From contig JAKQKX010000016.1 of assembly GCA_029560465.1 (NCBI GenBank), positions 206,221-270,220 on the forward strand: DNA of 64,000 nucleotides, in the 5' to 3' direction. This document shows positions 2,505-10,473 of the stretch, one piece after another. A program made the position numbers and the translations under genes. The notes under the pieces are model-generated. The model saw nothing but the letters and a program-made list of their open reading frames with translations, searched no databases and was not told where the DNA came from. Each line of letters begins with the position of its first letter. Positions within the stretch are counted from its first letter, which is position 1. This DNA is from Candidatus Omnitrophota bacterium. Its GTDB lineage: Bacteria; Omnitrophota; Gorgyraeia; Zapsychrales; JANLHA01.

Positions 2505-2909
2505 ATGACAGAAGAGTCTAATTTTTATTTTCATATTGCGACAACATCCGGCGTCCCGATTTACCGGCAGATTATCGATCAGGTGAAAACACTAGCTGCT
2601 TTCGGCCGGGTCAGCCCCGGCGATTTCCTGCCTTCTGTGCGGCAGGTGGCCCAGGAACTTGAGATTAATCCGATGACGGTTTCTAAAGCGTATTCCTGGC
2701 TTGAGAAGGAGGGGGTCCTTGAATCTGTCCGGGGGCAGGGGATGCGGGTTAAAGAAGACAGGATTTCAAAAAAGGACATGAAAGAACGTAAAGACGCTCT
2801 GCTTCCTCTTTTAAAGCAGGTCGTTATCCAGGCCAGCCAACTATCTCTTGAGCCGGAGACGGTTATGGCTCTGCTCGAACGTTTATGGAAGGAGACTCCT
2901 CATGAATGA
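2505..2909 (+). CDS. GntR-family (YtrA-like short) transcriptional regulator
   Basis: N-terminal wHTH (IYRQIIDQVK...GDFLPSVRQVAQELEINPMTVSKAYSWLEKEGVL) with a short C-terminal tail. It is immediately upstream of an ABC transporter, as is typical for YtrA-type GntR regulators. Confidence 0.7.
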   Translation: MTEESNFYFHIATTSGVPIYRQIIDQVKTLAAFGRVSPGDFLPSVRQVAQELEINPMTVSKAYSWLEKEGVLESVRGQGMRVKEDRISKKDMKERKDALLPLLKQVVIQASQLSLEPETVMALLERLWKETPHE

Positions 2910-3780
2910 TCCCGTGATCCAGGCGCAGCGTGTCACCAAGCGGTATAAGGCCAAAACGATCCTCAATGATTTGTTTTTAGCGGTGCCCCGGGGCTCGGTG
3001 TTCGGGCTCTTGGGCAAGAACGGCGCCGGGAAGACAACACTCATCAAATGTGTGTTAGGGCTTGTGTATCCTCAGGACGGGCTGATATCGGTTTTGGGTG
3101 ATAACCCTAGGAATTTTCTGGAGAGGACCAAAGAACGGATCGGTTACGTCCCGCAGTCTGACCGGCCTTATCCCTGGCTGACTGTCCGGCAACTTGTCAC
3201 GTACACGGCATCTTTTTATCCGCTTTGGAATATGGCTTTGGTTGACAGGCTGTTGAAGGAATGGGAACTGGAGGAGGAGGACAAGGTCGGGCTTCTCTCC
3301 GAGGGGCAGGCACAGAAGCTTTCCATTATTCTCGCTCTGGGGCATGAGCCTGAATTGCTGATTTTTGATGAGCCGGTGGCGAGTTTGGACCCGGCGGCGC
3401 GGCGGAAGTTTTTGAAAACGATTTTAGACATTGTTGCGGACCGTGAATGCACGATATTCTTTTCCACGCATATTACGAGCGATTTGGAACGCGTGGCAGA
3501 CCGGGTTGCCCTGCTTAAAAACGGGACGATCGATTTCTGCGGAGAACTGGATGTCCTGAAAGATGAAGTAAAGCGTTTAAGGATTGTCTCTCCCGTCCCG
3601 TTGCCCCGGGATATTCCCGTAAACGGCGTCCTGCGCTGCGAGCTGTCTCAATATGAGGCGGTCCTGTCCGTGCGTGGGTTTCATGCCGGGATCAAATCTC
3701 AAATGGAGCAGCGCCTTAACGCCAGGATTGAAGTGGAAGACTTAAACCTGGAAGAAATATTCCTGGAGCTGCACGCATGA
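2902..3780 (+). CDS. ABC transporter ATP-binding protein
   Basis: Walker A GKNGAGKTT, signature LSEGQAQKL, Walker B LLIFDEP. The start is taken at internal ATG (MNDPVIQ), which overlaps the GntR stop. The tracked start at 2848 lies inside the GntR gene. Confidence 0.8.
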   Translation: MNDPVIQAQRVTKRYKAKTILNDLFLAVPRGSVFGLLGKNGAGKTTLIKCVLGLVYPQDGLISVLGDNPRNFLERTKERIGYVPQSDRPYPWLTVRQLVTYTASFYPLWNMALVDRLLKEWELEEEDKVGLLSEGQAQKLSIILALGHEPELLIFDEPVASLDPAARRKFLKTILDIVADRECTIFFSTHITSDLERVADRVALLKNGTIDFCGELDVLKDEVKRLRIVSPVPLPRDIPVNGVLRCELSQYEAVLSVRGFHAGIKSQMEQRLNARIEVEDLNLEEIFLELHA

Positions 3781-5165
3781 AAACCCGTTATTGTCAGATC
3801 GTCCTTCTTTATTTCCGGTACCTGCCTTACCGGATCCTGGCGCTGAGTCTTCTTGGGACGGCCCTGCTTTCAAGATTTTCCTTAGAACACAGACTTGTGG
3901 CCATCGCGGATGATTTCTTCACGTTTTTTGTCGTTGTCAGCGTGTGGCTGGCTTTTACCGCCGGAGTGCTTTTAAAACGGCAGATGGCCCAGCACCGGGC
4001 TTCGCTCCTGCCGCGCTACCGGCTCCCGCACATTATAGTCCCTTTCGGATTTTTCGCGTTTTTTCTCATCGTTTTTTGTTACTGGCTGGTCAGCCTCTAC
4101 CCGATCATTATTGTGAACCCGGGTGCGATTTGGTCGGTGTTTGTTTTATGCGCCCTTGTGATCTCAGTGGTCATATGGGTGGGTTACCTGTCGATTAACA
4201 TGCTTGTTTACCTGTCTTATTTCTCCATGCTTTTGGTCTCCTGGCAGGCGTATAACCTTGTTGTTTTTTTGACGGAACATACGGCCTGGCAATTTATCGT
4301 GGGTTGCGGGAGCGCCGTGTTGATGTTGGCCTTGGCCAGGAGGGGGATGTTTCTTAAAGAAGAATCCTTTGAGTACGGGTATATTATGATGTGGCCCCAA
4401 AAAGAGTTTTTGCATAATCAAATCAAAGCGGGCGAACTGTACACCCGCAGTGTGCGCGCTTTCCGGAAACGTTTTGGGATGCCAGCTGTGGTCCTAACGC
4501 TTCCGGGATATCCTCGGCGTGCTGCGCTTTGGCGCCGGGCGTTCCACTGGCACCGGATTGATTTTGCTGAATTAAAGGGCATATGGATGGCCTTGCTGGT
4601 CATGACACCGGTGTACCTCGCCAGCATCAGCCGACTGCCTCTCTGGCATGGATTTTTAAAAGACCCGTACAATAATTTCTTGTTGTATACTGTCGCCCCG
4701 GTTTTGCTTGTGCTGTGTGCGAACCACCGTAATATGACGACGTGGGGTTATGACGTGCTGAAGCCTGTCCGCAAGGGAGATTTTGTGCAGGAGCAGGGGG
4801 TGGCCCTGGTCGCAGGGCTGGGCTTTTATTGGTTCCTGTTCGTTTTTTACCTGGTTTTAACCCCGCACCTGGTCCTTAAGCCGGCTGAGTTGGCCCTGCC
4901 GCGCTTTTGGGGGTATCTTCTGTTGACGGGAAGTTTCGCGTTGTTGACGTTGTCCTGGGTTATTTTTATGAGCTGTTATTCATCGCGGCCGTGGTTTGTC
5001 ATTATCCACGGGGGTATCCTGTGCATGCTCGCCCAGCTGTTATTCATGGTCAGCGTACGCTTTTCCGGGATGATCAGCCTGGCAGTCAGCGTGGCCTGTT
5101 GGGTGGGCATATATGTATTTTTAAAGAGCGGTTATCGGAAATGGTGTGAAGCCGAATTCAACTAG
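3777..5165 (+). CDS. Polytopic membrane protein, putative permease partner of ABC ATPase
   Basis: ATGA overlap with the ATPase stop. It has more than 10 hydrophobic helices and no recognisable soluble domain. Confidence 0.45.
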   Translation: MKTRYCQIVLLYFRYLPYRILALSLLGTALLSRFSLEHRLVAIADDFFTFFVVVSVWLAFTAGVLLKRQMAQHRASLLPRYRLPHIIVPFGFFAFFLIVFCYWLVSLYPIIIVNPGAIWSVFVLCALVISVVIWVGYLSINMLVYLSYFSMLLVSWQAYNLVVFLTEHTAWQFIVGCGSAVLMLALARRGMFLKEESFEYGYIMMWPQKEFLHNQIKAGELYTRSVRAFRKRFGMPAVVLTLPGYPRRAALWRRAFHWHRIDFAELKGIWMALLVMTPVYLASISRLPLWHGFLKDPYNNFLLYTVAPVLLVLCANHRNMTTWGYDVLKPVRKGDFVQEQGVALVAGLGFYWFLFVFYLVLTPHLVLKPAELALPRFWGYLLLTGSFALLTLSWVIFMSCYSSRPWFVIIHGGILCMLAQLLFMVSVRFSGMISLAVSVACWVGIYVFLKSGYRKWCEAEFN

Positions 5166-5207
5166 GGCGGGCTTGAGGAAAAATTTAATGAGAAAGGAGG
5201 GGTTCCT

Positions 5208-5417
5208 ATGACACCGGAAGCCATTCGAAGTTTATGTAAAGCGGCTGCTTTGGTTTCGGCTGTGGCAGGCGCTTACGGCATGATGTTATGTGTGCCGTTC
5301 ATCGCCGGCACGCAGGTGGTTTTGATTGCCGCCGCCAGCTTGCCGTTTATCGCCGGAGCCGTCTTGGTAGCCGGAGGGTTGGTCAGTTACACGCTGCTCA
5401 TTCGCAAAGAAGCATAA
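5208..5417 (+). CDS. Small membrane protein (2 TM)
   Basis: 69 aa, mostly hydrophobic, with a GGAGG RBS upstream. Confidence 0.35.
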   Translation: MTPEAIRSLCKAAALVSAVAGAYGMMLCVPFIAGTQVVLIAAASLPFIAGAVLVAGGLVSYTLLIRKEA

Positions 5418-5516: not shown

Positions 5517-6314
5517 TTGCCGAAGGTCCAGGAATATTTTAAACTTGCGATGCATTTAGCCGGCTCCGCAGCGTTCGGGTGCGTCGCGGCGATCGCTTGG
5601 CATGAAGCCGGCCACATTATTTTTATCCTGGGTTGCGGGGGAGAGGTGACGGGAATCCACGTGCAGCCTTTTACCCGGTCGGCGGTGACATATAACATCC
5701 CGGCCACTGCGTCGTCCTGGATTGCGGCCTCGGGTATTTTAGCGGGGGTAACGGGCGGGGCGGTCCTGTTGGTGCCCTTGAGGGCAACCCGGAATCCTTA
5801 TGCGCTGCCGCTGGTGATGGCGGGGGTCGCGTCCTGGCTCGGGAACGGCTTATATCTCGTTTTAGGGAGCACCATTTTGAAGGGGTTCGGTGATCCGGGC
5901 CGGATGATCGCGCAGGGTTTCCCGGTCGGCGGGCTTTTTACGGCGGGGGTTTGTTGTGTGGCCTTGGGCGGCCTGGCGTTTATGCGGTTCCTTCCCCTGA
6001 CGGGTATTTCCCCGGACATGGCCATTTTGCCGCGGACGGGGATATTGCTCGGCGGTGTTTTCCCTTACCTGGCCGGGATCATTATTTATAATGGCATTCA
6101 TGATTTCCCTCGGCTCATGCGTTATTGCGTTTTTATGGCGTGGATACTGGGCCTGGCCTTATTGGGGAGCTGGATGGCGGGGCATCCGGCGGCGCGCTTG
6201 TTTAGAGGCGCGTATCCTGTTTTATCTGTCCGTTGGCCTCATGCCTGGACAGCGGCCGGCCTTGGGATTGGCGTTATTGCTGCGGCGCTTTATGCGGCGG
6301 GCGCCGCTGTTTAA
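5517..6314 (+). CDS. Integral membrane protein with HExxH motif (putative intramembrane metalloprotease-like)
   Basis: TTG start preceded by AGGAGG. WHEAGH is embedded in a hydrophobic segment. It has multiple Gly-rich TM helices. Confidence 0.35.
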   Translation: MPKVQEYFKLAMHLAGSAAFGCVAAIAWHEAGHIIFILGCGGEVTGIHVQPFTRSAVTYNIPATASSWIAASGILAGVTGGAVLLVPLRATRNPYALPLVMAGVASWLGNGLYLVLGSTILKGFGDPGRMIAQGFPVGGLFTAGVCCVALGGLAFMRFLPLTGISPDMAILPRTGILLGGVFPYLAGIIIYNGIHDFPRLMRYCVFMAWILGLALLGSWMAGHPAARLFRGAYPVLSVRWPHAWTAAGLGIGVIAAALYAAGAAV

Positions 6315-6359: not shown

Positions 6360-7049
6360 ATGCACGCGTTTTTCTCTTTTATAGCGGCGGTGTTGCCCGC
6401 CTTACTTTTGGTGAGGTATTTTTACAAGGCCAACCCTGCGCCGAAAAGGTTTATTGTTAAGGTGTTTCTCCTCGGAGTTATCTATACACTGCCGGTTTAT
6501 ATCCTGGAAGTGATCCTGGCTCGGTATAATATGTTTCCCCGCTGGTCATTTGTCCTTTATTATTTCTTTGAAGCCTTTATCGTCGCAGGATTATGCGAGG
6601 AATATATCAAATTAAGGATTATTAAAAAATATGTTTACGGAACCGTTTTTTTTCAGGGGGAGCGGGACGGCATTATTTTTACTGTGGTGGCCAGCATGGG
6701 GTTTGCCTGCATGGAGAACATCCTTTATGTGGTCAATCATTCTTGGAATATGGCGCTGGCCCGGGGCTTCACGGCGGTGCCCATGCATGCCGTTTGCTCT
6801 GGGGTGATGGGCTATTCTTTGGGGAAGGCCAAGCGTTCTCAGATATTAAACCGCCTTGCGGAAGAAAAAAAATATATAAATCAAGGGTTGTGGGAGGCGA
6901 TTTTGATCCACGGGTGTTATGATTTTTTTCTTTTTTTATCGCCGATATTAGGGTCTGTTTTCGCGATGTTCACGATCCCGCTTGTTTTAGGATATTACCT
7001 GGAACTCAGGAATAAGATGAAAAGGATGGGGCCGGAGGCCCGAATATAA
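6360..7049 (+). CDS. PrsW-family intramembrane protease-like protein
   Basis: EE-x-x-K (GLCEEYIKLR), FACMENILY and two His-containing TM motifs (HAVCSG, LIHGCYDFFLF) match the PrsW/CPBP-type signature. It has ~6 TM. Confidence 0.5.
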   Translation: MHAFFSFIAAVLPALLLVRYFYKANPAPKRFIVKVFLLGVIYTLPVYILEVILARYNMFPRWSFVLYYFFEAFIVAGLCEEYIKLRIIKKYVYGTVFFQGERDGIIFTVVASMGFACMENILYVVNHSWNMALARGFTAVPMHAVCSGVMGYSLGKAKRSQILNRLAEEKKYINQGLWEAILIHGCYDFFLFLSPILGSVFAMFTIPLVLGYYLELRNKMKRMGPEARI

Positions 7050-7064
7050 ATAAAGGAAGGTTGT

Positions 7065-7508
7065 TTGACAAATTTTATCTACAACTTGTTCGCTTACCCA
7101 TCGGCCTGGCTGACCGCTGTGTTTCATGACGCCGCGATTGCCTCCGCTAACGGGGGGGAGCTCTGGATCCTGCTCGTTCCCCGCCCGATTCATGTGACGC
7201 CGGAGTGCTGCGGGTTCAATTTTTTCGTTTTGCTCGGTGGTTATACGCTGTTGTTTATTTTACGCCGTTACCCTAGGCCCTGCGCCGGGCCTGCAGTTCT
7301 GCTGGCGCTTCCCGTGGTCTATGTGACAACCATTTGCGCCAACGCCGTACGGATGACATGTGCGTATCATGTGGCCTGTTTAAGCCGGACGCTGTTCCCC
7401 GCGTGTTTTCAGCCGGTGATTCACATGGCGGTGGGGATCGCCGTTTTTTTAAGTGCCCTTATCTTGAGCCATTTATTGATCGAAAGGATCGGCCTCTATG
7501 GAAAATGA
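7065..7508 (+). CDS. Minimal exosortase/archaeosortase-family protein (XrtN-like)
   Basis: TTG start with AAGGAAGG RBS. Candidate catalytic Cys (PECCGFNFF), Asn-x-x-Arg motif (ICANAVRMT) ~50 aa downstream, and a following His (AYHVAC). It has 4-5 TM and is only 147 aa. Confidence 0.45.
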   Translation: MTNFIYNLFAYPSAWLTAVFHDAAIASANGGELWILLVPRPIHVTPECCGFNFFVLLGGYTLLFILRRYPRPCAGPAVLLALPVVYVTTICANAVRMTCAYHVACLSRTLFPACFQPVIHMAVGIAVFLSALILSHLLIERIGLYGK

Positions 7509-10473
7509 CGCGCGGGAATCCGTTTTGCCCGGAATCTTAAAAAGGACCACGATGCTTTTCTGGGTTTTTATCCTGCCCCAAAGCGTGCTGTTAGCGCTCA
7601 ATTGTTTTTCCTTCTGGATTATCCGGGAGGAAATCCTCCCGCAAAATCTTATGGCGTCCTCGGTGTTGTTCGGCAGCGAAGTGTTCCTGATCGTGTTCCT
7701 TGGGGCTTTGTTTTATTCCTGGAAACGGGGCGGGCGCCGCGAGATCCCATGGACATGGAATTGGTTTTTTCTTTTGTTCCACATCGCCTATTTGTGGTTT
7801 GCGACGTCCGAGATCCCGCATATTATTCCCGGTGCTGTGGAATCCTGGGTTCTTGACCTGGGGCAGGTGATCCTGCAGCAATACACGTTTATGATGCCGG
7901 GATTATTTTATGCGGCGATGCGGCTGGCGTGTTTTGAAACCCGGTTGGACCGGGGGGTTGATATTGGGCGCAGCTTGCTGGTGGCGGTGGCGGCGCCCGC
8001 ATTATGGTATACGGCCATGCTGGGGTTGTCAACGTGCGTCCGGTGGACGTGGGGCTGGTTTCCGCCGGTTGTGGGGATTATTTTTTTCGTCGGGACCACC
8101 CTGGTCACGCTTGTTGCGCTGATCCGGCTGAGCGTGTTCTTTTACGGTTGGTATCAGAAGCGGGACCCTTGGATTCACAACACGGTTATCGCGCTGGTCG
8201 CAGTCGCCGGCCCGTTGGCGGGTTTGCTTTTGAACGCGCATATCCCTTTTCCGGCTGATTTTCAGGCCCCAGGGATATACATTTTAGCGATCTTAAACGG
8301 GCTTGTCTTGCTTGCCCCCTCGCTTTGGGGTGTCCGCGGCAAGGGCTGGCTTCTGTTTTTGCGCGCCTTGGCATATCCTTTTACCGTTTATTTCTTCCTG
8401 GTTTTTCTCCCCTTTCTGCCTTTATCGCTTTTAGCGATTTGCGCTCTGGGCCTGGGTTTTCTTTTCCTGATTCCGTTAACCTTGTTTTTGATTCATACGA
8501 AGATTCTTGTTGAAGACGCCCGGATGTGGTCGGCCCGGCGGGGACGGGCATCGGCTGCGGTTTTGCTTTGCTCCGCCTGTCTGGTTTTGCCGGGTTATTT
8601 GATCCTGGAAGCGGCGTGGGATAAGTCCGCCATTCAGCAGGCGCTGGATTACGTGTATTCTGCCGATTATGAACAACCGCAGCATTTTCAGGGTTCCCTT
8701 TATACGGTCAAGAAAGTTTTAGTCAAGATGAAGCGGGTTAAAGCCGGGGCCCGGATGCCGTATCTTTCCGCTTTTTATAATAAAGTCGTTTTTAACGGCA
8801 TGGTTTTGCCTGATGACAAAATCGAATATATGTACCGGCTTTTTACAGGGGAAGCTGTGCCGGATGTGCAGGCTCCGGCGGCTTTTTTCGGCGGGAGAGG
8901 TCGTTTGCGGTCTTCCCGGGGCGGGGGACAAGGCCGCCGGATACAGCGTAACCGCGAGGTTATATTGTCTTCGTTCAAGAGGTTCAGTGAGGATAAGGAG
9001 TTTACCACCGTCACAAGATTACAGTTGTATATGCAGAACACCGGCGGGGATGATGCGGCGGAATTTTTTCAGGAATGCGAGATCCCCGCTGGTGTTCTGA
9101 TTTCGGATTTCCGCCTGCTTGTGAACAAAGAAGTCGTGCGGGGGCAACTGTTTGAAAAAGAAACCGCCACGTGGGTTTATCATATGATTCGGGACTGGAC
9201 GCGCCGTGATCCGGGGCTCCTTGTTTATGTTTCGCCCACCCGGGTGGAGATGAGTGTCTTCCCGTTTCAGAAAAACGAAATGCGTTACGCCGAATTGGAA
9301 TTGACGTATCCCCGGGGGATGGCCCCGGTCATCAAGATCGGCCAATATCCGATATTTTTGAAAGATAGCCCCGTGCACAATGGGGCGATGCCGATGGCCT
9401 TGACGGGCGGCGATCCCGGCGGGGAGGATTATGCTTTTGTCCTGACGCATCCCGCGTATTCTTCCCTGTTCTTCAGGCGGAAGCCTTACCTGCATTTTAT
9501 CCTTGATTTTTCCGCCGGGTCGGAATTGTCTGCGGATGCCGCCCTGCCGAGGATTCTTGAGGCGGCTTCTGTGTTCCCTGAGGCGGACCTGGTCCATGTC
9601 AGCGCGGTGAATTTTGAAGTTGAGCTCTTGAGTCGGGATTATATTGCTGTCCGCGATAAGGCGCTGATCCGGGCGGCGATAGACGCGGCCCGTCTTCCCC
9701 GCCGGGGGAGCGTGGACCTGTCCCGGGCGATGAAACGGATTTTGTCGCTTTATCAGGCCAAGCGGGCAGCCGGGGTTCCCGAGACATGGCAGCGGTATCC
9801 GGTTTTTGTTGTTATCTCGGATAGGGCAGACCATCTCCTAGGGCCGGACGATATGGCGTTTTATCAGGACCTGGTTCCGGAACAGACCCGGTACTATATT
9901 TCGACCCTGGACCAGGGTTTAAAAGATTACCCCCTTTTCCTTCCCAGCGCGGTTGCCACGGAACAGGTCGTGGTGATTAAACACGGCCCGCACATTTCTT
10001 GGGTCCCGGTTTCCGCGGACCCGCAATGGCGGTTGGCCGCAAGCCTTGGACAAAATCTGAAGGCTGTTTATGAAGTGTATTTCCCCGGGGAAGACATGTT
10101 TGCTCCTTTACAGTCCATGCCCCTCCCTTCCCAGTCGGATTACGCGCAGGATATGGGGCTTTTTATCCGTAACGCCCGTATGATGAAGAACCCCGCCAGG
10201 TTGGCGTCGGGGCTGACGGCGCTGGTGCGGGACAGTAAGTCCAGGCGGGTCATGATCCCATCGACGTCCTATATTGTCGTTGAGCGCAGCTCTCAGTGGA
10301 AAACCTTGACTAAGAAAGAGGGGCAGAAAATGGCCAGCGCGCCGGGGTTGGAATTTGAAGAGGATTTTGATACTCCGGCGCCTTCGATGTGGCTGGTTGG
10401 AGGACTGTTTCTCCTGTGGTTGTGCCGGCGGCAGCGAAGACCGGGCCGTTTCCTGGCCCCGTCTGTCCGTTAG
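7498..10473 (+). CDS. Large polytopic membrane protein with VIT-like and vWA-like domains and a C-terminal sorting-signal-like tail
   Basis: Overlaps the upstream gene by 11 nt. The N-terminal ~330 aa has more than 10 TM. The central part is VIT-like (ECEIPAGVLISDFRLLVNKEVVRGQLFEKETATWVY), then vWA-like with a near-MIDAS motif LDFSAGSE. The C-terminus is PAPSMWLVGGLFLLWLCRRQRRPGR, i.e. motif, TM helix, then an Arg cluster. Confidence 0.55.
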   Translation: MENDARESVLPGILKRTTMLFWVFILPQSVLLALNCFSFWIIREEILPQNLMASSVLFGSEVFLIVFLGALFYSWKRGGRREIPWTWNWFFLLFHIAYLWFATSEIPHIIPGAVESWVLDLGQVILQQYTFMMPGLFYAAMRLACFETRLDRGVDIGRSLLVAVAAPALWYTAMLGLSTCVRWTWGWFPPVVGIIFFVGTTLVTLVALIRLSVFFYGWYQKRDPWIHNTVIALVAVAGPLAGLLLNAHIPFPADFQAPGIYILAILNGLVLLAPSLWGVRGKGWLLFLRALAYPFTVYFFLVFLPFLPLSLLAICALGLGFLFLIPLTLFLIHTKILVEDARMWSARRGRASAAVLLCSACLVLPGYLILEAAWDKSAIQQALDYVYSADYEQPQHFQGSLYTVKKVLVKMKRVKAGARMPYLSAFYNKVVFNGMVLPDDKIEYMYRLFTGEAVPDVQAPAAFFGGRGRLRSSRGGGQGRRIQRNREVILSSFKRFSEDKEFTTVTRLQLYMQNTGGDDAAEFFQECEIPAGVLISDFRLLVNKEVVRGQLFEKETATWVYHMIRDWTRRDPGLLVYVSPTRVEMSVFPFQKNEMRYAELELTYPRGMAPVIKIGQYPIFLKDSPVHNGAMPMALTGGDPGGEDYAFVLTHPAYSSLFFRRKPYLHFILDFSAGSELSADAALPRILEAASVFPEADLVHVSAVNFEVELLSRDYIAVRDKALIRAAIDAARLPRRGSVDLSRAMKRILSLYQAKRAAGVPETWQRYPVFVVISDRADHLLGPDDMAFYQDLVPEQTRYYISTLDQGLKDYPLFLPSAVATEQVVVIKHGPHISWVPVSADPQWRLAASLGQNLKAVYEVYFPGEDMFAPLQSMPLPSQSDYAQDMGLFIRNARMMKNPARLASGLTALVRDSKSRRVMIPSTSYIVVERSSQWKTLTKKEGQKMASAPGLEFEEDFDTPAPSMWLVGGLFLLWLCRRQRRPGRFLAPSVR

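Follow-up and report, generated by a model that had tools for sequence, protein, structure and literature searches.

A 147-residue exosortase-family protein from an Omnitrophota bacterium and its predicted dedicated MSEP-CTERM partner

Introduction

Can an open reading frame (ORF) of only 147 amino acids, resembling no more than the catalytic core of an exosortase, encode a working enzyme, and if so, on what would that enzyme act? This question is raised by a locus in a stretch of 64,000 nucleotides from a Candidatus Omnitrophota bacterium (assembly GCA_029560465.1, contig JAKQKX010000016.1), which we call the window and in which positions are counted from the first letter. A first-pass annotation, made from the letters without database searches, had described the ORF as a real but extremely short exosortase-like gene. 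It had overlooked what proved to be the decisive context, an adjoining and overlapping gene for an MSEP-CTERM protein, the predicted substrate. Here we describe the gene, its family, its partner and its neighbourhood, and weigh the alternative readings of the locus.

Results

The short ORF is a conserved gene

The ORF was found exactly as first called, on the plus strand with a TTG start codon and a product of 147 aa (Table 1). The start position is conserved among relatives, with TTG in loci L001 and L004 and ATG in L005, each preceded by its own ribosome-binding site; an AAAGGA/GGAGGGA motif is kept at the equivalent site in all three. A promoter scan gave a signal no higher than the shuffled background and carries no evidential weight. 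Public data contained an identical 147-aa protein from a Candidatus Omnitrophota metagenome-assembled genome and five further clusters at 47-73% identity, all from Omnitrophota, with complete members of 147-148 aa; this protein and the named cluster representatives recovered are labelled 'hypothetical protein'. The length of 147-148 aa recurs at 47-67% identity in independent, diverged Candidatus Omnitrophota genomes. Pairwise dN/dS of the exosortase gene was 0.18-0.25 at saturated dS values of 0.9-2.3, and the gene is under purifying selection over its whole length.

Table 1 Features of the exosortase locus, with positions in the 64,000-nucleotide window.
Feature	Position	Strand	Evidence
GntR regulator	2505-2909	+	Pfam GntR
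ABC ATPase	2848-3780	+	Pfam ABC_tran
462-aa membrane protein without family	3777-5165	+	Synteny
69-aa membrane protein (p69)	5208-5417	+	Synteny
265-aa polytopic membrane protein (p265), HEAGH (HExxH) motif near N-terminus	5517..6314	+	Translation
PrsW-family intramembrane protease gene	6360..7049	+	PF13367 98.4 bits; NF033739 117.4 bits
Shine-Dalgarno-like AAAGGAAGG	7052..7060	+	Read from the sequence, 5' of the exosortase TTG
Minimal exosortase gene, XrtK-like, 147 aa	7065..7508	+	ORF; TIGR04178, TIGR04287, hhalign, AlphaFold, dN/dS
N-terminal helix, residues 2-20	7068..7124	+	DSSP of model; hydropathy 1.09; family charge distribution
Three-stranded beta-sheet region, residues 24-44, leading to the catalytic Cys	7134..7196	+	Model secondary structure
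Cys48 codon, proposed catalytic nucleophile	7206..7208	+	Invariant in 97, 71 and 38 sequences
Asn93-Ala-Val-Arg96 codons (N-x-x-R motif)	7341..7352	+	N93 and R96 invariant
His120 codon	7422..7424	+	Invariant in 97 and 38 sequences; at least 90% once canonical exosortases are added
MSEP-CTERM protein, 991 aa, predicted sole substrate	7498..10473	+	TIGR04286; VIT; TM scan
Tripartite sorting signal: T959-P-A-P962, helix S963-C976, R977-R-Q-R-R981	10372..10440	+	Translation

The protein is a short member of the exosortase/archaeosortase superfamily

Profile evidence places the protein in the exosortase/archaeosortase superfamily, with a similarity well above chance. The superfamily signature TIGR04178 was matched at 27.4 bits against a cut-off of 23, with residues 43-139 on profile positions 2-92 of 97. 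Profile-profile comparison with canonical exosortases by hhalign, a check that the first-pass annotation had suggested, gave a probability of 95.9% and an E-value of 6.3e-9 over 128 aligned columns. Query residues 4-142 map to columns 157-296 of 315; relative to exosortases of ~280-320 aa, the protein spans the C-terminal half only and shares their end point. The earlier description of an exosortase-family protein cut to its catalytic core was thereby borne out. A Pfam search of the 147-aa protein returned no match at E ≤ 1, including to PF09721 (Exosortase_EpsH); precomputed PF09721 matches are present in relatives such as P0003 and P0154.

The best specific model was that of exosortase K (XrtK, TIGR04287), matched at 29.4 bits against a cut-off of 55 and over profile positions 65-157 only. 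On these matches the protein falls outside XrtK proper, both in score and in full-length architecture. An exhaustive HMMER search with a clade profile returned 324 representative clusters at E ≤ 1e-3, and the best 150 of the 324 are mostly 160-200 aa long (median 178). Of 97 relatives, 96 matched TIGR04178 as well as XrtK, which is the best specific model for them too. Among the 38 enzymes linked to a partner gene of the kind described below, 30 matched XrtK at E ≤ 1e-5 and none reached ~55 bits on that model; they therefore form a sister clade outside its capture. The profiles of XrtK and of ArtE (TIGR04124) are themselves only 163 and 153 positions long, and that of XrtN (TIGR04476) has 406. 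The suggestion that such minimal forms are rare does not stand, given that two short families are already curated and that relatives fill 324 clusters.

Two candidates were set aside. P0055 (L007 5896-6456) had appeared to be a naturally minimal 151-aa member; its start is mis-called and the real ORF encodes 186 aa with an N-terminal helix. P0074 (684 aa, 11 matched stretches) is a repetitive, eukaryote-like low-complexity protein with repeated 'CSP.WGVTPTQTGFLFFSVL' units, a false positive that was excluded from the alignments. More generally, some database entries of 140-151 aa in the exosortase family have mis-called starts, and lengths alone overstate the number of truly minimal forms.

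Catalytic residues, predicted fold and topology

Six residues (C48, N93, R96, H120, G124 and F128) are invariant across 97 diverse relatives, and the first four are also invariant in the 38 genome-derived partner-linked relatives, in agreement with the Cys...N-x-x-R...His block that had been read from the sequence at the outset. The neighbouring C49 is not conserved and is Ser in most relatives. C48, N93/R96 and H120 align with the CSG, N..R and H motifs of canonical exosortases, and residues 24-44 with their 'GN-vi-L...l-V-tEACSG' loop.

An AlphaFold2 model built on a 71-sequence alignment, the structural check proposed earlier, gave a confident fold (pLDDT 92.2, pTM 0.85). It contains a helix at residues 2-20, strands at 24-27, 33-36 and 42-44, and helices at 51-68, 71-110 and 113-142. 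Hydropathy picks out three strongly hydrophobic helices (48-66, 77-95 and 122-140) and a weak N-terminal one. The original estimate of ~4-5 transmembrane (TM) helices was thus only approximate, the model having four helices and a three-stranded sheet. Each of the conserved Cys, Arg and His lies at an end of one of three successive TM helices. In the family as a whole, the loop corresponding to 67-76 has 3.1 K+R versus 0.5 D+E, the C-terminal tail is basic and the sheet region is net acidic. From this charge pattern and the positive-inside rule we infer that Cys48, Arg96 and His120 lie at the periplasmic (outer) ends of the three hydrophobic helices. The RRYPRP loop and the C-tail would then be cytoplasmic, with the N-terminal helix and the three-stranded sheet on the outer face, where the weakly hydrophobic helix 2-20 is probably interfacial. 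With three TM helices as its probable complement, the window enzyme would have to pass its net-acidic N-terminal 47 residues across the membrane without a signal anchor. These 47 residues are net negative (D22, E32 and E47 versus R40), and a net negative N-tail is compatible with N-tail translocation during membrane-protein insertion. The PDB copy searched held no exosortase or archaeosortase structure, and sequence searches of the PDB with the enzyme profile and with the partner profile returned nothing meaningful.

The enzyme is paired with an overlapping MSEP-CTERM gene

Directly downstream lies the gene for a 991-aa protein that scores 384.6 bits with the MSEP-CTERM model TIGR04286, whose cut-off is 150, and covers its profile positions 4-915 of 920. 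Its ATG lies inside the exosortase gene, with an overlap of 11 nt that is conserved in relatives. The protein has ~9 or more N-terminal TM helices by TM scan and a VIT domain scoring 24.3-25.3 bits. Its tail reads ...DFD-TPAP-SMWLVGGLFLLWLC-RRQRR... and, as read from the translation, has the layout of exosortase sorting signals: a motif, a TM helix and a basic cluster. The motif here is T-P-A-P and not literally M-S-E-P; P960, P962 and R978 are invariant in the partner alignment (A6). We also compared the polytopic N-terminal domain of the partner with the exosortase half that the enzyme lacks, and homology between the two was rejected at an hhalign probability of only 1.4%.

To see how general the pairing is, an alignment of six partner proteins was scanned against one genome per GTDB species. 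This returned 46 partner loci, from Omnitrophota, Verrucomicrobiota, Kiritimatiellia, Lentisphaerota and a few other groups. A short exosortase was found directly upstream on the same strand, usually overlapping, in 38 of the 46; the same enzyme/MSEP-CTERM pairing is also seen in L005, L006 and L007. In the tails of the exosortase-linked partners, a [ST/A]-P-[AE]-P motif comes before a TM helix and basic residues.

No exosortase was detected at the remaining 8 of the 46 loci. Three of these are uninformative: upstream sequence is lacking in L046, the L047 homologue is truncated to an ORF of 605 aa, and L024, with no complete ORF, offers no tail. In the other five (L021, L023, L033, L035 and L036) the partner homologues end in PEP-CTERM-like tails of the form VPEPxT...LLxLxG...RRR, for example FEQVPEPTATLLALAGGAVILCRKRRR, which is the signal of general exosortases. 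The partner family has apparently switched its sorting enzyme in these five, to judge from the tails. The L021 partner ORF is also much longer, at 1523 aa. Since the type of tail co-varies with the presence of an adjacent short exosortase, there is strong comparative evidence that the short enzyme is dedicated to its neighbouring gene.

Loss of the N-terminal helix in the sub-clade of the window

The partner-linked enzymes differ at their N-termini. In 35 of the 38 there is an extension of at least 20 aa with a hydrophobic core, whose mean hydropathy is 2.28 and whose net charge is +2.6 before the core and ~0 after it; by these features the extension is a signal-anchor-like helix. It is absent only in the sub-clade of the window (the window itself, L001-L005 and L009-L011), where the enzymes begin directly at the conserved 'IYNLFAYPSAW' helix, and residues 5-21 are invariant within this sub-clade. 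The closest relatives of the window enzyme are 173-210 aa long and have the N-terminal helix. The alignments thus indicate that this Omnitrophota sub-clade has lost a signal-anchor helix of ~30 aa. A truncation has taken place, but it is this small, conserved loss of one N-terminal TM helix and not the loss of half a canonical gene.

The genes upstream also differ. In other Omnitrophota, namely L014, L015, L017 and L019, the ABC ATPase gene is followed in turn by the genes for the 462-aa protein, the 69-aa protein, a full-length exosortase (177-205 aa) that comes directly after p69, and the partner, whereas in the sub-clade of the window p265 and the PrsW gene sit between the 69-aa gene and the exosortase. 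PrsW occupies the position before the exosortase only in the sub-clade with the truncated enzyme, and most relatives have no PrsW nearby. Among the 46 partner loci p265 occurs in L009-L011 only, and it appears from gene order to have been co-inserted with PrsW in the helix-less sub-clade. Because the insertion is specific to that sub-clade, the loss of the helix coincides with it. p265 has no Pfam or NCBIfam family match; an HExxH membrane protein beside PrsW brings to mind the PrsW/RasP pair of Bacillus subtilis, a site-1 and a site-2 protease.

The genes from 2505 to 5417 are syntenic with the exosortase/MSEP-CTERM pair in L001-L005, L014, L015, L017 and L019. This gene order suggests that the GntR, ABC, 462-aa and 69-aa genes form one larger functional unit with the pair; no such linkage was seen in the Verrucomicrobiota loci. 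Two further observations concern this region. A B12-binding radical SAM gene lies between the 462-aa and 69-aa genes in L004 (4567-6057) and L005 (3662-5104); neither the window nor L001-L003 has it. The window also has, immediately 5' of the GntR/ABC genes and at 59-2278 on the plus strand, a gene for a 739-aa Cys-rich repeat protein (CCGYGG..., CGY... and 'TTxV...EP' units) with no Pfam match.

Discussion

A proposed function for the pair

We consider it likely that the ORF encodes a functional, dedicated XrtK-like membrane cysteine transpeptidase/protease whose single substrate is the overlapping downstream MSEP-CTERM protein. We base this reading on the homology to the C-terminal half of canonical exosortases, the invariant Cys48, Asn93-x-x-Arg96 and His120, the conserved adjacency of the two genes and the purifying selection on the enzyme. 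In the mechanism that we propose, two parts of the substrate would anchor it in the inner membrane, the polytopic domain at its N-terminus and the signal helix at its C-terminus, with RRQRR inside, and the enzyme would recognise the T-P-A-P that adjoins this membrane on its outer side. On the model of sortase A and archaeosortase A, Cys48 would attack this motif to form a thioacyl intermediate and release the stub of TM helix and RRQRR; water, or an acceptor such as a lipid or glycan, would then resolve the intermediate. Both the cleavage site and the acceptor in this scheme are pure inference. The enzyme could be impaired if, without a signal anchor, its N-terminal 47 residues fail to reach the outer face.

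Alternative readings of the locus

Alignment solely to the C-terminal half of canonical exosortases, the lack of even the N-terminal helix of its closest relatives and the apparent insertion of p265 and PrsW directly upstream might all suggest a pseudogene, in which the ORF would be what is left of the C-terminal part after a frameshift or other disruption of a canonical exosortase gene (~300 aa). We judge this very unlikely. The space upstream is taken up by a PrsW gene that is complete, with Pfam profile positions 2-193 of 196 matched, and that ends 15 nt before the start codon, and the frame upstream of the exosortase is closed in every member of the sub-clade, in the window by the stop 15 nt 5'. 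An HMM search for the canonical N-terminal half in all six frames of the 64 kb window found nothing near the locus, its best match (E 0.027) lying away from it at 363-467, and the 147-aa ORF is the sole exosortase core in the window; the frameshifted N-terminal half for which the first-pass annotation had advised looking is thus in no frame. Length and start position are conserved at 47-67% identity, dN/dS is ~0.2 at saturated dS with undisrupted reading frames in the relatives, every catalytic residue is kept, and the family as a whole is short. With the completeness of PrsW, the conserved length and the purifying selection, the claim of a real gene and not a fragment therefore holds. The PrsW gene could also be joined to the exosortase as one fusion protein through read-through of a single TAA (7047-7049), given that one stop codon and five sense codons are all that separates the two ORFs, which share a frame, in the window, L001 and L004, and that an exosortase-protease fusion is known, by its model name, in another family (TIGR04162, 'exosortase E/protease'). 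We find this highly improbable: in L005, at 47% identity, PrsW and the exosortase are read in different frames with a 4-nt overlap, the latter from an ATG and a ribosome-binding site of its own, a conserved Shine-Dalgarno motif lies inside the spacer, and PrsW is not near the exosortase in most relatives. Equally improbable is the XrtN-type assignment made at first, for which we could cite a weak match of the downstream protein to TIGR04477, the model for the VIT protein of the XrtN system, at 43.6 bits where 250 are required. TIGR04476 itself gave no match to the 147-aa protein at E ≤ 1, its length means that XrtN is not a minimal form, only 1 of 97 relatives matched it at E ≤ 1e-3 against the 96 that matched XrtK, and of the two target models it is that of MSEP-CTERM, not that of XrtN, whose cut-off the partner passes; the nearest specific family is exosortase K.

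The loss of the helix invites a different objection, namely that it blocks the correct topology and leaves a protein without catalytic activity, or one with a new role such as that of a non-enzymatic partner or chaperone for either the MSEP-CTERM protein or PrsW. The N-terminal hydrophobic helix with its positive N-flank, kept by 35 of 38 relatives, is missing from the clade of the window, the unusual invariance of residues 5-21 within the clade could mean a new interaction, and PrsW and the HExxH membrane protein were gained at the same time. We nevertheless regard this as unlikely, since C48, N93, R96 and H120 are kept throughout the clade, the T-P-A-P, TM and basic parts of the substrate signal are intact, purifying selection acts over the entire gene and the negative charge of the N-terminal 47 residues is compatible with N-tail translocation. 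A related and doubtful idea is that the protein is the smallest working exosortase, with three TM helices and a 47-residue outer cap but no signal anchor, and that it can work at this size only because the TM1-5 scaffold, which canonical exosortases have in cis, is provided in trans by another polytopic membrane protein. That scaffold could be the N-terminal domain of the substrate, which has 9 or more TM helices, or else PrsW and the HExxH protease, which were acquired together. If so, the dedication of minimal exosortases to polytopic VIT proteins would have a reason, as would the coincidence of the helix loss with the gain of two membrane proteases. The reading that we prefer remains that of a functional enzyme dedicated to the MSEP-CTERM protein.

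Comparison with known systems

XrtK (TIGR04287) and the MSEP-CTERM protein (TIGR04286) are designated partners in the TIGRFAMs/NCBIfam model descriptions, a curated sorting system of one enzyme and one substrate, and they are the closest curated counterpart of the system described here. XrtK is the best specific model for the window enzyme, both enzymes are short and both have an MSEP-CTERM gene adjacent, but the window enzyme scores 29.4 against the required 55 bits and has no N-terminal TM helix, and the signal of its partner is T-P-A-P and not M-S-E-P. A literature search gave no match for 'MSEP-CTERM' and only unrelated matches for 'XrtK', and no paper on XrtK/MSEP-CTERM was found. The system belongs to the 'dedicated' enzyme/target type described by Haft (bioRxiv 10.1101/2023.06.07.544157).

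Canonical 8-TM exosortases (EpsH/XrtA; TIGR02602, TIGR03109 and PF09721), which act on PEP-CTERM substrates, share with the window enzyme a core in which a Cys opens one TM helix, N-x-x-R closes the next and a His opens the last, all preceded by a helix and a beta loop. Their substrates likewise carry a tripartite signal, and the P-[AE]-P of the window-type partners resembles PEP. They differ in carrying ~130-150 extra N-terminal residues (4-5 TM helices) and in serving many substrates per genome, whereas the window enzyme is dedicated to the neighbouring gene. ArtE is another curated minimal member of the superfamily; it is archaeal, however, and gave no match to the window protein. The XrtN/VIT protein system (TIGR04476/TIGR04477) also pairs an exosortase with a large VIT-domain membrane protein, although XrtN is 406 positions long and undetected here, and the window partner stays far below the cut-off of the VIT model.

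The activity of archaeosortase A (ArtA) requires the conserved Cys173, Arg214 and Arg253, and its signal consists of PGF, a TM helix and basic residues (PMC9263693). This requirement supports the Cys/Arg-based mechanism proposed for the window enzyme. The substrates of ArtA become lipid-anchored (PMC7157517).

Implications

The pairing of enzyme and target is already catalogued, and the window system is a modest variant of it, not a new system, which will not surprise a specialist. What is unusual in this Omnitrophota sub-clade is that the membrane helix present at the N-terminus of 35 of 38 relatives has been lost. The partner family also offers a natural experiment, in which a dedicated short exosortase goes with a [ST/A]-P-[AE]-P signal and its absence with a PEP-CTERM-like one. 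The clade, found in Omnitrophota, Verrucomicrobiota, Kiritimatiellia and Lentisphaerota, lies under the XrtK cut-off, and a broadened model would name its members. The protein is useful as a minimal model enzyme: with only 147 residues on one side and the predicted single substrate encoded by the adjoining gene on the other, the two would lend themselves well to reconstitution in vitro and to structural work, and the pair could help to identify the acceptor of exosortase reactions.
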